A DNA stretch of 64,000 nt from Lytechinus pictus (lineage: Eukaryota): assembly GCF_037042905.1 (NCBI RefSeq), contig NC_087251.1:20152001-20216000 (forward strand). Direction: 5' to 3'. How positions within the stretch are numbered: position 1 is the stretch's first letter; each line of letters starts with the position of its first letter. Positions 41,443 through 57,190 of this stretch are shown piece after piece. Position numbers and translations under genes: made by a program. Under the pieces are notes generated by a model. The model made no database searches, was not told the origin of the DNA, and saw only the letters and a program-made list of their open reading frames with translations.

Positions 41443-42168
41443 TTAAATAATAATTGTGATGTTGTTTCTTCCATCTTACCCCTTGATTCCCATCCCATCC
41501 CTCAGACATCATATCACCATCTACACATTTGTTTGTTGTACAGTACATCATCTCCAACATCCATCACCACAAACCATTGATCAGACACAATACAACATTG
41601 TCACAATATTTATTCTAAAGTCAAATGCAGATATACCAGTGATAATGGTAATGATGTGGGTAGGTAGAATTACCACATCATTTGCTCCATTTCGGGAATG
41701 ACTGATTAAAGAGGTTATTAAAAAAGAAGCGTTGTTCTATGCGAATGACTGAATGTAATGCTATTTCTCATTGCAGGCTATATTCGTATTAACCATGAGT
41801 GATAACAAATTATTGAAGCAATATGGGTATGAAGACATCTGCAGTTTACAGGTTAATTCCATAGCCAAAATATTTCAAGGATTCATCCAAGATTTTTTTT
41901 TTTTACTGTTTCAAGGAATGATTTAACAATACTAATAAATGTTATCTTTCAGATTACCTAAGTAATTCTTTGTTCATACTGTGTTCAAAGGACAATGTCT
42001 CCCTTCGGAAAAACATAATATAGAGGACTTTGACTTGCAATCAATCAACTGCAAATCAATTTTAGGGCCAAAGAGCAATCATAAAGTCTTAACAATAAAT
42101 TTCCAAAGGATTTTTTATCTGCTTTAGCCACATCTGACCACTTCATTTTTTTAATAAGAGGGTCTTAC

Positions 42169-42588: not shown

Positions 42589-43540
42589 AACAAGTGGAAT
42601 GCCTCTGGCCGTCTCACCTGCATCACGCGATTCAATATAGCAGCAGTGCTGATTTTGAAAACTACTATAACTCGCACAAGATGTTCAGTGATACTTGGTT
42701 ACTCTTATTTCCACGTTTTATGAACTAGACCAATACACTTATAGAGATATGATGGCAATTCAACAAATACCCCCAACGTGGCCAAAGTTCTTTGACCTTA
42801 CATGACCTTTGACCTTGATCATGTGACCTGAAACTCGCACAGGATGTTCAGTGATACTTGATTACTATTATGTCCAAGTTTTATGAACTAGACCAACACA
42901 CTTTCAAATTTATGGCTGTAATTCAACAAATACCCCAATTTGGCCAAAGTTCATTGACCCTAAATGACCTTTGACCTTGATCATGTGACCTGAAACTTGC
43001 ACAGGATGTTTAGTAATACTTGATTACTATTATGTCCAAGTTTCATGAATCAGATCCATAAACTTTCAAAGTTATGATGGTAATTCAACAGATACCCCCA
43101 ATTTGGCCAAAGTTCATTGACCCTAAATGACCTTTGACCTTGGTCATGTGATGTGAAACTCATGCAGGATGTTCAGTGATACTTGATTAACCTTATGTAT
43201 AAGTTTCATGAACTAGGTCCATATATTTTCTAAGTTATGATGACATTTCAAAAACTTAACCTTAGGTTAAGATTTTGATGTTGATTCCCCCAACATGGTC
43301 TTAGTTCATTGACCCTAAATGACCCTTGACCTTGGTCATGTGACATGAAACTCAGGCAGGATGTTCAGTAATACTTGATTAACCTTATGGCCAAGTTTCA
43401 TGAACTAGGTCCATATACTTTCTAAGTTATGCTGTCATTTCAAAAACTTAACCTCAGGTTAAGATTTGGTGTTGACGCCGCCGCCGCCGTCGGAAAAGCG
43501 GCGCCTATAGTCTCACTCTGCTATGCAGGTGAGACAAAAA
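42589..43540 (-). mobile_element. Helentron-associated non-autonomous element (HINE / Tsp / pearl-like) with about 4.5 internal ~162-bp tandem repeats
   Basis: AACAAG at one end; subterminal IR GTCTCACCTGCAT...ATGCAGGTGAGAC; terminal hairpin gtctcactctgctatgcaggtgagac; (GCC)n tract; ends in an A run with no TSD. Confidence 0.8.
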
Positions 43541-48112: not shown

Positions 48113-48773
48113 AACAAGTGGAACGCCTCTGGCAGTCTCGCCTGCATTACGCGATTTAATATAGCAGCAGTGCTAACTTTGAAAACTACTATAAAATAAT
48201 CATTCACAAAAACACCATTCATATAATGACATAATACCATGTTCATTGACCATAAATGACATTTGAACGGTGACTTAAGACTTGTCAACTACACCCATGT
48301 CCACATTTCATTCACTCTATCCATAAACTGTCAAAGTTATGATGGTAATTCAACAATTACCCTAACACGGCCAAAGTTCATTGACCTTAAATGACCATTG
48401 ACCATGGTCATGTAACCAAACTCGCACAGGATATTCAGTGGTACTTGATTAATCTTATGTCTAAGTTTCATGAACTAGATCCATAAATTTTCAAAGTTAT
48501 GATAGTAATTCAACAAATACCCCCAACTTGACCAAAGTTCATTGACCCTACATGACCTTTGACCTTGGTCATGTGACCTGAAACTCGAGCAGAATGTTCA
48601 GTAATACTTGATTAACCTTATGTCCAAGTTTCATGAACTAGGTCCATATACTTTCTAAGTTATGATGTCATTTCAAAAACTTAACCTTAGGTTAAGATTT
48701 GAGGTTGACGCCGCCGCCGCCGTCGGAAAAGCGGCGCCTATAGTCTCGCTCTGCTATGCAGGCGAGACAAAAA
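48113..48773 (-). mobile_element. Second HINE-like element of the same family, with fewer internal repeats
   Basis: Both ends nearly identical to 42589-43540 (aacaagtggaacgcctctggc...gccgccgtcggaaaagcggcgcctatagtctcgctctgctatgcaggcgagacaaaaa). Confidence 0.8.
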
Positions 48774-49104
48774 CAGATTAAAATTAGGATCTCAAAATTA
48801 GTTTGAATATAATCTAATGAAATTACCACCAAAGTGTTTATATATATCTGTGAATTTATAGTTCCTAACAATTTCAGAATTCTAAAATAATTTGAACGAT
48901 GTAGAGATTATATCAATGGGGAGGGGGGATAGGGGAGCTGTTTGCATGGATATCACAAAATTGAAAATGTTAAGTTTCTTAAATCTGTGCTTCTTTAATA
49001 AATTTTTGCCAAACCTTCGAAAATATATTTCTCTCTTTCTACTTTTGTAAAATCCAACATGATGTCTGGGTAGACTTCCCCACTGAGATTTAGTATCACC
49101 TTAC

Positions 49105-49209
49105 CTGTAGATAGCATTTGAGCAGAGTTGTGTCGATGATGAGACTCCTTTGTCTTCTTGAAGTTACTATCTTTGATCCCTCGCAGATAGTTGAAGGCGT
49201 GGCTGCAGT
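49105..49209 (-). CDS. VPS39: VPS39 exon (105 nt): TAATPSTICEGSKIVTSRRQRSLIIDTTLLKCYLQ
   Basis: Acceptor tacag, donor gtaagg; IIDTTLLKCYL begins the Vps39_1 domain. Confidence 0.93.
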
Positions 49210-49642
49210 CTGTATGTATACAAGTATGATTGAAAGAGTTGAATAGTAGGCTTAAATAAGACATGCAAGATTTCACACAACAAATCTGATTTCTATTAAG
49301 GTATAATCAGATAAATAAGTACATTATCCATATTTCCTAAATTCAAGGTCTCTTCCACAAAAAGAAAATACAACCTGAAATATACGTTCCTTTTTTATTA
49401 CTAAATTTATGATTGAGCTAAACTATTCAACTAATAGTAATCTTAAATAAAAACTTGTATCTCTGCAAACATATATTTCAAAGGATGTCAGGTTTCAGTC
49501 AATAAAATGTATTAAAGTTCCATACAACATTTCCCTTGAATTATTAAGAAATAAAATGAGACATTAGCTGATGCAAGAGCGATGGATTTGTCAGATAAGT
49601 ACATCAAGAGTGTGGCATCACAAATCTACACCTGCTGATTAC

Positions 49643-49821
49643 CTGTTGAGAGGATTCCTTGGCAAGGTCTTGTCTCTTCTGGGTAAGATACTCTACCAAG
49701 GCAGTCAGACCTTTCTCTAGTTCAGCTCCACCAAGCTCTGTAGGTGTGCTGGGGTACTGTAACACCTGTCTATACTCCTTGGGTAGAAGGTCTGGGAAGA
49801 GACCAATCACCTGCGCTGGAT
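49643..49821 (-). CDS. VPS39: VPS39 exon (179 nt): DPAQVIGLFPDLLPKEYRQVLQYPSTPTELGGAELEKGLTALVEYLTQKRQDLAKESSQQ
   Basis: Acceptor ttcttgatag, donor gtaatc; the only copy in the array that continues into GAELEK...YLTQKR. Confidence 0.93.
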
Positions 49822-51312
49822 CTATCAAGAACAAGATACAACTCAGTTATCACACTATTCTTCAGCCTAGTTTTACAGAGTCCTGTAGGTGTGCTGGGGT
49901 ACTGTAACACCTGTCTGTACTCTTTGGGTAGTAGGTCCGGGAAGAGACCAATCACCTGTGCTGGATCTATCAGGAACAAGATACAACTCAGTTATCACAC
50001 TATTTTTCAGCCTAGTTTTACAGAGTCCTGTAGGTGTGCTGGGGTACTGTAACACCTGTCTGTACTCTTTGGGTAGTAGGTCTGGAAAGAGACCAATCAC
50101 CTGTGCTGGATCTATCAAGAACAAGATACAACTCAGTTATCACACTATTTTTCAGCCTAGTTTTACAGAGTCCTGTAGGTGTGCTGGGGTACTGTAACAC
50201 CTGTCTGTACTCTTTGGGTAGTAGGTCTGGAAAGAGACCAATCACCTGTGCTGGATCTATCAAGAACAAGATACAACTCAGTTATCACACTATTTTTCAG
50301 CCTAGTTTTACAGAGTCCTGTATGTGTGCTGGGGTACTGTAACACCTGTCTGTACTCTTTGGGTAGTAGGTCTGGAAAGAGACCAATCACCTGTGCTGGA
50401 TCTATCAAGAACAAGATACAACTCAGTTATCACACTATTTTTCAGCCTAGTTTTACAGAGTCCTGTAGGTGTGCTGGGGTACTGTAACACCTGTCTGTAC
50501 TCTTTGGGTAGTAGGTCTGGAAAGAGACCAATTACTTGTGCTGGATCTATCAAGAACAAGATACAAGTAATTCAGTTATGTTTAACATAGTCCTGTAGGT
50601 GTGCTGGTGTACTGTAACACCTGCCTAGACTCCTTGGGTAGTAGGTCCGGGAAGAGACCAATCACCTATGTTGGATCTATCAAAACAAGCGACAAGTAAT
50701 TTAGTTTTACACAGGTCTGTTGATGGGCTGAAGTGCTGTAACACCTATCTAAACTCCATGGGTTACAGGTCTGGGAAGAGACCAATCACCTATGTGGGAT
50801 TTATCAAAAACAAGAGACAACACTTTTCTTCAGCCAAGATTTACAGAGTTCTGTAGGTGTGCTGGGGAACTGTAATACATGTCTTTACTACTTGGGTAGA
50901 AGGCTGGTTACAGACCAATCACCTGCACTGGATCTACCAAAACAGGTACCAGTAATTGATATCATTCTAGTAATACAAGGCATATGATTTAGAAGGAAGA
51001 AGATAATTTTGCTTCAGTCTTGTTTTACAGAGTTTTTGTAGGTGTACTACGGTACTGTAACACCTGTCTCATCCTTGGGTAGTAAATCTAGAAACAGACT
51101 GATCACCTGTGCTGGATCTATAAAAAAGACAAAAACACCAATCCTATCACACTAGTTGCATAGTGCAATTTCAAAGGAAAATATTCTTTTGATTTTAAGC
51201 CAAAACATCTTTCTTCACCTTATCCCCCCCCCCCCCCCCCCCCCCCGCTTGGTAGTTATGCTGGGACACACAAATTGTCAGAACTCCATGGGGCAAAGGT
51301 CTGAAAAAGACC
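49738..51312 (-). repeat. Tandem array of a duplicated VPS39 intron/exon junction: 145-bp unit, 5 near-identical copies plus about 5 degenerate ones
   Basis: The ctgtaggtgtgctgggg register (ctgtatg in the 50318 copy) recurs at 49738, 49883, 50028, 50173, 50318 and 50463, then more diverged at about 50593, 50718, 50851, 51037 and 51250. Confidence 0.95.
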
Positions 51313-51594
51313 TGTATTCTACCCAACAAGAGTGGAACATATCAAGATCACTCCACAATCAACAGCACTTATTTCATATTTTCAATTTACATTAAATTTT
51401 CATAGCTTTAGCTATATATCAATCATTTGACAAAACAAAACAGTTACACCATTAATCAAAGTGTTTGCAGTAATAACATATACAGAATGATTGGTTTGTA
51501 CTAATGGAACTAACAGGAATGATATCCATGCCATTACAATTTTTCTAAAACCTGTCAATCACTTCTTTACAAGATTACACAATGAGCTGCTTAC

Positions 51595-51724
51595 CTGTTC
51601 CTAGTTTGGCAAACATTTTCATAGACTCTTCAAAGCGGTGTTGCTGAAACAGCTCAAAGGCATATAGGTTCTGAATGTGCTGTATTCTCCTCTGTCGATC
51701 AGCCTCTACCTCATCTGTCATGTA
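51595..51724 (-). CDS. VPS39: VPS39 exon (130 nt): YMTDEVEADRQRRIQHIQNLYAFELFQQHRFEESMKMFAKLGT
   Basis: Acceptor ttcag, donor gtaagc; NLYAF and FAKLGT motifs. Confidence 0.95.
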
Positions 51725-52701
51725 CTGAATACGGAAGAAACAAAAACCAAATAGATTTTCATAGCCTTCTGTAAAATATAAGCTGCGACAGATTTTCTTG
51801 TTTTGACCTGACCAATAAAAGGGGAAGTTTCAATGAAATTGCAATCAATTTCAAGTCAAGTTTAGATCCCAACATCAATCACATTCTTGCAAATTAGCTG
51901 CAGTATTTATCAAGTACAAATATACAATATACAATTGATAGATCAATTTCAGCTGCGATGAATATATAGTTAACATTGATCTTTCAATTGGAAAGCTGCA
52001 AATCAAAATTTACAATCAATGGAAATAGGTTCTGGCAAAACTCCCTTGGTCCCTAAATTCTCCAACATTATAATGACAACAAAGGGAAGCTATGGGAAAG
52101 TATGCTGCAATACAATAAAGTGCTTTGAGAATTTTTTCTTCAAAGCTTTAAGTACTGATAGTATATATGAAATAAGTATTAAATTACTGTCATGAATAAT
52201 GTGTTCATCATACTCAGAATTTTCTTGTTTTTTTTTTCTTAATGATTTTCTTAGTGACCGGCTGGCATGTCGTCAGTGTTTTGGTTTGAAAGAAAATACT
52301 GACGACGTGCCCGCCGATCATCGCAATCAAACTCTAGTCTTTTACCTCTCTTCATACATGTATCCAGCTCTGTGTATAAAAATCATGATGGTTAATGTTA
52401 CTGTTGTGGCGACACATTCCGGTACTCTTTTCTATTTGTGAATCATTTTCTATAGTCATTCTTGGTTTCCCTTTTTTCAAGCCTTTGAGGCTTTTTGGGA
52501 CACCTTTTTCTTTCATTATTTTTTTTTTATATCTCATCTTAATGTTTCATGATTATATTTGTATATTTATGTTCAAATGTATGGTATTTGTATGTTTTTA
52601 CATGTATATATTATTGAAAGAAATAAATGAGAGTATTTTTACTCTCCCTCAACTCAAATTTGATCAAGAAGATTAGTGTATACTTCATCAGATATACTCA
52701 C

Positions 52702-55755: not shown

Positions 55756-57190
55756 AACAAGGCAAATGCCAAGCGTTGTCTCGCCTGCATATTGCAGTCA
55801 TGTAGAGACTGCATGTCAAATCTGAAGGGTGACATTTAAGAAACTTTGACAGCTTTTCTATTGTACCATTTATAAATGGTGCCAAGAACTATAGCTCATT
55901 AAATAAATAACAACAGTTTTTGAAGAATAAACAAGTAAAATACAAAATCTGGTTCAGGTATAGAGAGTACTGAGTTCTGAAGTAAAATGTTAGTGTTAAA
56001 AAGTATAAAATTATAAAGTTCATGTCACTAGAGGAACAAAGTAGTGTGAAAGTTCATTGACCTTTGACCTTAATCAAATTCAACTTACATTCGAACCTGA
56101 CCTGCACCTTCAAGAGATGGACCTCTGTTACGAGTTTGGCGATCCCACCTCGAAGCTATAGAAATGTATTGTGTGTACAAAATAGCACAGTGCCAGTCAT
56201 GGAAAGTTCATTGACCTTTGACCTTAATCAAATTCAACTCACATTTGAACTTGACCTGCACCTTCAAGAGATGGACCTCTTGTATGAATTTGGCAATCCT
56301 ACCTTGAAGATATAAAAAGTTATTATGTGTACAACACAGCACAGTGCCAGTCATGGAAAGTTCATTGACCTTTGACCTTAATCAAACTCAACTCACATTC
56401 GAACTTGACCTGCACCTTCAAAAGATGGACCTCTTGTATGAATTTGGCAATCCTACCTCGAAGATATAGAAAGTTATTGTGTGTACAGCACAGCACAGTG
56501 CCAGTCATGGAAAGTTCATTGACCTTTGACCTTATTCAAATTTGGCTCACATTTGAACTTGACCTGCACCTTTAAGAGATGGACCTCTGTTATGAATTTG
56601 GCGATCTCACCTCGAAGCTATAGAAAGTTATTGTGTGTACAACACAGCACAGTGCCAGTCATGGCAAGTTCATTGACCTTTGACCTTATTCACATTCGAC
56701 TAATATTCAAACTTGACCTGTGCCTTCAGGAGATGGACCTCTGGTATGAATTTGGCGATCCCAACTCGAAGCTGTAGAAAGTTATTGTGTGTACAACACA
56801 GCACAGTGCCAGTCATGGAAAGTTCATTGACCTTTTACCTTTGACCTTATTCACATTTCGACTCATATTCAAACTTGACCTGTGCCTTCAGGAGATGGAC
56901 CTCTGGTATGAATTTGGCGATCCCACCTCGAAGATATAGAAAGTTATTATGTGTACAACATAGCACAGTGCCAGTCATGGAAAGTTCATTGACCTTTGAC
57001 CTTTGACCTTATTCAAATTCGACTCATATTCGAACTTGACCTGTGCCTTCAGGAGATGGACCTCTGGTATGAATTTGGTGATCCCACCTCGAAGCTATAG
57101 AAAGTTATTGGGTGTACAACACAATTGTTGACGACGACGCCGGAAATAGTGATACCTATGTCTCGCTCCGCTACGCAGGCGAGACAAAAA
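55756..57190 (-). mobile_element. HINE-like element of a related family with about 7 internal 154-bp tandem repeats (56040-57122)
   Basis: aacaag...gtctcgcctgcat at one end and gtctcgctccgctacgcaggcgagacaaaaa at the other; (GAC)n tract; gaaagttcattgacctttgacctt recurs every 154 bp. Confidence 0.8.

Follow-up and report, generated by a model that had tools for sequence, protein, structure and literature searches.

How does a gene keep splicing to the right exon when the intron in front of it is filled with copies of that exon's own beginning, acceptor included, and where do such copies come from? The question is raised by one intron of VPS39, a gene of Lytechinus pictus encoded on the reverse strand (-) of the 64,000-nt stretch of DNA analysed here (the window).

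The gene and the layout of the array

A protein search with the 59-residue exon at 49643-49819 (-) returned Vam6/Vps39-like proteins, those of echinoderms top-ranked. The exons found in the window correspond to the Lytechinus pictus RefSeq protein P0018, exactly in 17 out of 17 blocks, and several of their residues differ from the VPS39 of L. variegatus and S. purpuratus. Protein alignment resolved 16 GT-AG introns, with internal exons of 93-217 nt. The intron that carries the array runs from 51594 to 49822 (1,773 nt, phase 1 to phase 1). Upstream of it lies the exon at 51595-51724 (-, YMTDEV...KLGT), an exact match to P0018 whose end is also what the loose ends of the RNA junction reads spell, followed by the donor CAG|GTAAGC (GT at 51594-51593, -). 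The intron ends at the functional 179-nt exon, 49643-49821 (-, DPAQVIG...KESSQQ), established by both the protein match and RNA reads, with its acceptor at 49823-49822 and its donor CAG|GTAATC at 49642 (-). The next VPS39 exon, at 49105-49209 (-), has the same two kinds of evidence: the 433-nt intron before it was removed from 5, 4 and 1 reads in three RNA runs. The preliminary description had placed the gene, the exon and the donor GT at 51594 from the letters alone, and the protein match confirms all three. In 10/10 urchin proteins (one cluster, P0018 among them) the junction GT|DPAQVIG carries no insert.

At the other end of the gene, ca. 57 C-terminal VPS39 residues are present in the 880-aa Diadema protein, in older S. 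purpuratus proteins and in Logan proteins. They were not found in the 42 kb (1-42168, -) downstream of the donor CAG|GTAAGA near 42168, and in the RefSeq models (825-827 aa) of both Lytechinus and S. purpuratus the reading frame continues across this donor and then stops. This suggests either that the last intron is very long or that the models are truncated.

The array itself is real. TRF reports a period of 145 bp (6.7 copies, 94% matches, 49738-50689), continued by a decayed part of period 130 onward to 50944, and upstream of the exon the acceptor and the 84 exon bases after it can be followed through nine copies, five near-identical in the assembly and four decayed, together with a weak remnant. 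The starts equivalent to the real acceptor (49821) are, on the reverse strand, 49966, 50111, 50256, 50401, 50546, 50676, 50800, 50933 and 51117. Young copies 1-5 (49883-50546, -; the first five of these starts) keep the 145-bp period and differ from the exon at 5-7 positions, copies 2 and 3 being identical to each other. Copy 6 (50593-50676, -) has 8 substitutions and an in-frame TAG at codon 4; copy 7 (50717-50800, -) has 16 substitutions, an in-frame TAG and AA in place of AG; copy 8 (50851-50933, -) has 9 substitutions and a 1-nt deletion; and copy 9 (51036-51117, -), with 15 substitutions and a 2-nt deletion, has an intact AG and the top acceptor score of the array (9.5). Thus AG is kept in eight of the nine copies. 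A possible tenth, strongly decayed remnant, with GG at the AG position and a G run after it, lies at 51248-51322 (-); it is weak and was missed by blastn. Directly after it there is a run of ca. 23 G at 51224-51246, the assembled length of which may be unreliable.

These details, including the variant ttcctgatAG before copy 1, the TAG of copy 6, the AG-to-AA change of copy 7 and the deletions of copies 8 and 9, agree with what had been read from the sequence beforehand. The shortened spacing reported at copy 6 (130 bp) is found at copies 7 and 8 too (124 and 133 bp), but the spacing between copies 8 and 9 is longer (184 bp). Read-through from every copy meets a stop (9/9), as had been claimed, 65-79 codons past the junction in copies 1-5 and 3-23 codons past it in copies 6-9. 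Besides the frame shift claimed for such read-throughs, on paper there is a frame-preserving route, a cassette of 90 nt, the donor of which (TCT|GTAAAA) scores 0.0.

The duplicated boundary is peculiar to this exon in the window: blastn of the 15 internal VPS39 exons with 40-nt flanks detected no other duplicated exon boundary, and Rfam gave 0 matches. A metagenome scan reduced 592 pattern matches to one locus, a distant VPS39 at 63%, and no boundary copy was seen in the 500 nt examined there. Other repeats are found in the introns of this gene. A 154-bp tandem array at 56048-57123 (6.9 copies, 89% matches) lies in a different VPS39 intron and contains no exon boundary. Related units of 163 bp (and 192 bp) occur in two VPS39 introns, at 42669-43475 and 48297-48667, and have TGACC-rich motifs in common with the 154-bp array, probably as members of a dispersed satellite family. 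The intron upstream of the donor exon also holds a GC-rich 28-nt inverted repeat (52255-52320, 86% complementary, 10-nt loop).

Origin of the copies and of the spacer

Divergence from the real exon increases with rank (5, 5, 5, 6, 7, 8, 16, 10 and 16 differences for copies 1-9; Spearman 0.95, the copies not being independent of one another). The decay with distance proposed earlier therefore stands as a trend but not as a strict gradient of age, since copy 8 has diverged less from the exon than copy 7 has, and since a mosaic is seen in copy 1, with C26 and G29 as in copy 6 and A44 and C50 as in copies 2-5. On the same two grounds (copy 8 closer than copy 7, copy 1 sharing sites with copy 6) we rejected a strict ladder in which the copies were added one by one. 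In their exon part copies 1-5 differ mutually at only 0-4 sites. Copies 6-9 show 8, 16, 10 and 17 differences from the working exon and 15-27 from one another, near the sums of the former. Judged by these sequences, the copy distances form a star around the working exon and not a chain of neighbours.

The kinds of change also separate the two classes of copy. Eight of the nine distinct changes in the young copies are synonymous, against 11 of the 37 changes found only in old copies 6-9, where the neutral expectation is 24-32% (young vs. old, Fisher p 0.002). Half of the synonymous changes (4/8) occur in every one of the young copies, so that the working exon may be where they arose. If only the changes on which the young copies disagree are counted, 4/5 are synonymous (p 0.03). 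The four-gamete test is failed by 9 of the 45 informative site pairs, some of which repeat mutation could explain.

The 61-nt spacer before the functional acceptor (49822-49882, -) had been described as 61 nt of intron. The length is correct, but alignment to the exon shows that it is not plain intron. Exon nt 85-137 can be aligned in register with its first ca. 36-50 nt, and only its last ca. 11-18 nt represent the intron end. Against exon nt 85-120 it has 18/36 identical positions (binomial p 0.003), and transitions account for 14 of its 18 mismatches (binomial p 0.0001). Shuffling gave p 0.0004 with a transition-aware score, which was chosen after the alignment had been seen, and 0.016 with a plain score; only 2 of the 127,928 36-mers of the window score this high, the spacer itself and the exon counted in. 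The heptamer GTATCTT is present both at intron position -18 and at exon position +131. While the first 84 nt of the exon are found in the copies at 80-94% identity, the exon-tail part is at ca. 50%. If the spacer decayed from the exon tail in this way, the region just upstream of the functional acceptor is largely former exon.

We could follow the array into a second species, a relative with ca. 9% intron divergence in which all exon changes checked were synonymous (organism A). Its reads and contigs were aligned to 49060-49882, which holds a single unit between its neighbouring exons, and any copy is thereby placed on the real exon. The DNA contigs (dataset X1) show go-back joints, which means that organism A has an array as well. 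Compared by eye, the 40-nt spacer upstream of copy 6 is matched at 29/32 letters, the 50-nt spacer upstream of copy 7 at 27/28 and the start of copy 8 at 28/30. The related species thus has the same array with orthologous spacers. The young end is different. The unit adjoining the exon of organism A is ca. 154 bp and not 145, its spacer is of another type than that of the window, and one or two young units were seen; the five 145-bp units therefore look specific to the lineage or haplotype of the window. Within X1 a contig of depth 16 opens into two branches of depth 8.79 and 8.75 with different spacers, suggesting two haplotypes, and no piece spans the array.

The nearest copy of organism A, pieced from two contig records, has 0 differences from the working exon of the window over exon nt 1-83, and it is organism A's own working exon that differs from this copy, at positions 35 and 38. 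Drift in a single lineage would be expected to leave ca. 3.8 changes (P of none 0.02). Where the window has its copy 7, with 16 differences in 84 nt, organism A has a copy with 6 in 106 nt. Such figures would fit old slots whose exon parts have been refreshed from working alleles. The earlier suggestion that exon-proximal duplication recurred over a long period is supported by the star-like distances and by an array present in a species with ca. 9% intron divergence.

From these data the following history can be envisaged. A first, old duplication would have taken ca. 11-18 nt of intron end and ca. 137 nt of exon, possibly at the GTATCTT microhomology, and the 3' part of the unit would then have decayed into the present spacer. 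Mispairing of the exon start with the adjacent copy may keep adding or refreshing copies beside the exon, which is where identity is highest. The outer copies, in turn, would decay neutrally.

Acceptor choice and the fate of the copies in RNA

The sequence of the acceptors gives no reason for the use of the last one. We scored splice sites with matrices built from only 15-16 sites of this gene (15 other acceptors, 16 real donors). The real acceptor scores 1.2, those of copies 1-5 score 1.2-1.4 and that of copy 9 scores 9.5. Acceptor strength was accordingly rejected as the selector (real 1.2 vs. copy 9 9.5). Over the 38 nt upstream, the acceptors of copies 2-4 are the same as the real one, and sequence therefore offers no basis for a choice among them. 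What differs is the distance to the next real donor at 49642, which is 179 nt for the real acceptor and 324-1475 nt for the copies. Of the donors that follow a copy, just one, TCT|GTAAAA (+90), would preserve the frame, and it scores 0.0 vs. 4.3-11.8 for real donors. Exon definition is an established concept. It likely selects the last acceptor here, to judge by the arrangement of sites: the spliceosome would pair the donor at 49642 with whichever acceptor is closest upstream, 179 nt away, and not with those at 324-1475 nt, and the copies are likely ignored because a good donor follows only the last one at the distance of a normal exon. Exon definition is discussed in the accessible part of PMC1557585. 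Rare splicing errors would give stop-containing mRNA and be cleared by NMD.

A motif CAG|GTGAT also lies inside the exon at 49810 (-), with counterparts in copies 1-4, 8 and 9, and scores 8.3-8.5 (real donor 8.4). No use of this site, 11 nt into the exon, was seen in the RNA reads examined.

RNA was available from organism A (run X24) and from an animal of the same or a very close species as that of the window, for which the differences checked were synonymous (organism B, run X22); a further run, X21, had zero reads over the acceptor. About 6% and 25% of the RNA runs were read; mates are included among the reads, which have just 6-7 start places. NMD was active in the animals. The reads were aligned to one unit only, so that the evidence on joints from 51594 to each copy is indirect. 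In X22 the loose letters of 9 reads that end at the acceptor spell the end of the upstream exon, the copy letter at exon position 35 appears in 0/10 reads, there are no go-back joints, and depth is 0 on 49844-49882, i.e., on the spacer. X24 likewise has 9 loose ends at the acceptor that match the upstream exon, and 11/11 reads carry organism A's working-exon letters at positions 35 and 38, with 0/11 carrying those of its nearest copy. Copy letters were judged here by the copies of the window and of organism A, and not by those of the animals that gave the RNA; variant letters in fewer than 3 reads are unlisted for most positions, and our statements refer to the rows listed in the variant table. 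Three exon sites (49805, 49712 and 49685) have synonymous differences between organism B and the window, and the C that its RNA has at exon position 17 is also present in copy 9.

The 9 + 9 junction reads thus join the upstream exon to the working exon, and the claim that splicing bypasses the decoys is upheld by the missing copy alleles (0/10 and 0/11), by the empty stretch 49844-49882 and by the plain RefSeq junction. These counts set upper bounds on leakage, 0/10 allowing up to 26% and 0/18 junction reads up to 15%. A stop-containing form was represented in 0/21 reads at the diagnostic site (two runs), a depth too low for a level of a few percent.

Our reading of the locus, which we consider probable, is that the array is a mirage (see below) carried by two urchins and skipped in the RNA reads seen, likely a tolerated by-product, the copies of which are likely born from the exon by unequal exchange and ignored on account of their distance from the donor. 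If this holds, the array is ordinary in function, simply a repeat that is tolerated.

There are other possible explanations. The preliminary description had proposed a copy-number-tunable control, in which regulated or copy-number-dependent poison acceptors would send VPS39 mRNA to NMD and so tune the dose of HOPS. AG is indeed present in 8/9 copies, and over 38 nt copies 2-4 do not differ from the real acceptor. All read-throughs (9/9) run into a stop, and the array has lasted across two species, the half-depth branches of X1 suggesting haplotype variation. Moreover, NMD targets are poorly visible in steady-state RNA, so such products could be missed. However, copy letters occur in 0/10 and 0/11 reads and zero reads lie on the spacer; the old copies change at the neutral ratio (11/37 synonymous) and one of them has lost its AG. 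Spacer differences between the species (1/28 to 3/32) are near the intron level of ca. 9%, and copies that are regenerated persist without selection. In addition, both the mirages of amphioxus and the VNTR of F7 are silent, as far as the accessible text of PMC3087553 and PMC1557585 goes, and VPS39 is unnamed in the literature found, within which subscription papers are thinly covered. At this RNA depth, with NMD active, the proposal finds no support, and we regard it as unlikely. Its heritable version, a rheostat in which each young copy would divert a small share of the pre-mRNA to NMD, more copies would mean less HOPS subunit and re-copying would have preserved the control since before the split of the species, is in our opinion about as unlikely.

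It is comparably unlikely that the five young copies are partly an over-expansion, by the assembly, of a shorter array. There is no difference between copies 2 and 3 and a single one in copy 4, and organism A shows one or two young units only, of ca. 154 bp, as might be expected if the number were inflated. A search of sequencing runs also listed none that contained half of the words of the window. Nevertheless, copies 1, 4 and 5 have private changes, and the array as such is seen independently in the X1 contigs. A length of 725 bp is also within the easy span of long reads.

The young copies could also be taken for in-frame cassette exons of 90 nt (acceptor to TCT|GTAAAA) that encode a duplicate of 30 residues, the synonymous bias being then the result of direct selection. 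The 90-nt piece has phase 1-1 and is stop-free in copies 1-5, GT follows every copy, and the bias (8/9) is what such selection would leave. Yet the donor TCT|GTAAAA scores 0.0 compared with 4.3-11.8 for the 16 real donors, copy letters are in no RNA read, the insert is missing from 10/10 urchin proteins (8 of Lytechinus and Strongylocentrotus plus Diadema), and the spacer beside the exon of organism A is of another type. We find this explanation very improbable. Hardest of all to believe is a two-step splicing from the donor to a copy acceptor and then from CAG|GTGATT (11 nt in; score 8.3 vs. 8.4 for the real downstream donor; found in copies 1-4 and 8) to the matching AG of the real exon, for although it would yield an mRNA of normal length with its first 11 nt from a copy, it depends on a micro-exon of 11 nt as well as on a cryptic acceptor, and predicts A at exon position 8, where X22 lists no C>T place (ca. 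9-10 reads, threshold 3).

Comparison with known systems

The VPS39 array is a "mirage" minisatellite, a structure already described in amphioxus in the accessible part of PMC3087553. As in that type of repeat, the units run head-to-tail and span the intron-exon boundary of the host gene, with the authentic boundary of the intact exon as terminal unit. Most units keep the splice dinucleotide, the inner ones are concerted and the outer ones diverged, and splicing is undisturbed, here at a low RNA depth (upper bound 15-26%). A literature search that mostly left subscription papers uncovered and excluded supplements found neither an echinoderm mirage nor a paper with both Lytechinus and VPS39.

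According to the available portions of PMC3087553 and PMC3902484, the amphioxus mirages are in Adh (Adh3), in BflGb6 and BflGb9, in troponin C and in PGBD5, and they combine in tandem the 3' end of an intron with an exon's 5' portion, as the VPS39 array does. The similarity extends to the size of the unit (150-160 bp in BflGb6, 145 here), to the homogenised inner and diverged outer units, to the AG kept in many of them and to splicing that is unaffected where tested, in amphioxus by RT-PCR. BflGb6 has 6 and 3 units on two haplotypes, with identities of 81-100%, so unit number differs between haplotypes, and Adh3 shows somatic length instability. The mechanism of origin is called unclear in PMC3087553.

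Three further systems resemble parts of the picture, each as given in the accessible text of its source. In CBS 844ins68 an acceptor and exon start are duplicated upstream, the downstream site is used, the duplicate is spliced out and the mRNA is normal (PMC2630376); it differs in being a single extra copy that segregates in humans, while VPS39 has a long-lived array with graded decay. The 37-bp VNTR in intron 7 of human F7 likewise offers identical splice sites within a minisatellite, of which only the neighbour of the intact exon is used, position and not sequence deciding (PMC1557585). It concerns, however, the donor side, and the activation of its pseudo-sites was shown by mutation. In ATP2A1 exon sequence became intron by tandem duplication of a coding segment containing AG|GT (PMC3265369), and the VPS39 unit also holds an internal CAG|GT. 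Unlike in that case, an existing intron was lengthened in VPS39, with no new intron position and an unchanged protein junction.

As a natural invertebrate test of acceptor choice the locus is of some use, since splicing passes over three acceptors whose 38 nt are those of the real one, as well as an upstream acceptor with a higher score. It is also a caution for annotators and for exon-based phylogenetics that functional-looking alleles can sit on intronic copies. Surprise would come only from the unlikely control of dosage, if true. Should the reading as a tolerated mirage be correct, the locus would supply sequence evidence on how mirages arise and persist, in that the copies would radiate from the working exon, outlive speciation and turn an exon tail into the region upstream of an acceptor. 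Compared with the amphioxus examples, the VPS39 array is in an echinoderm, is common to two species with orthologous spacers, looks as if the working exon had been copied repeatedly and includes a spacer that appears to be decayed exon; it is this persistence in two species, these signs of re-copying and this apparently exon-derived spacer that are added to the mirages already known.
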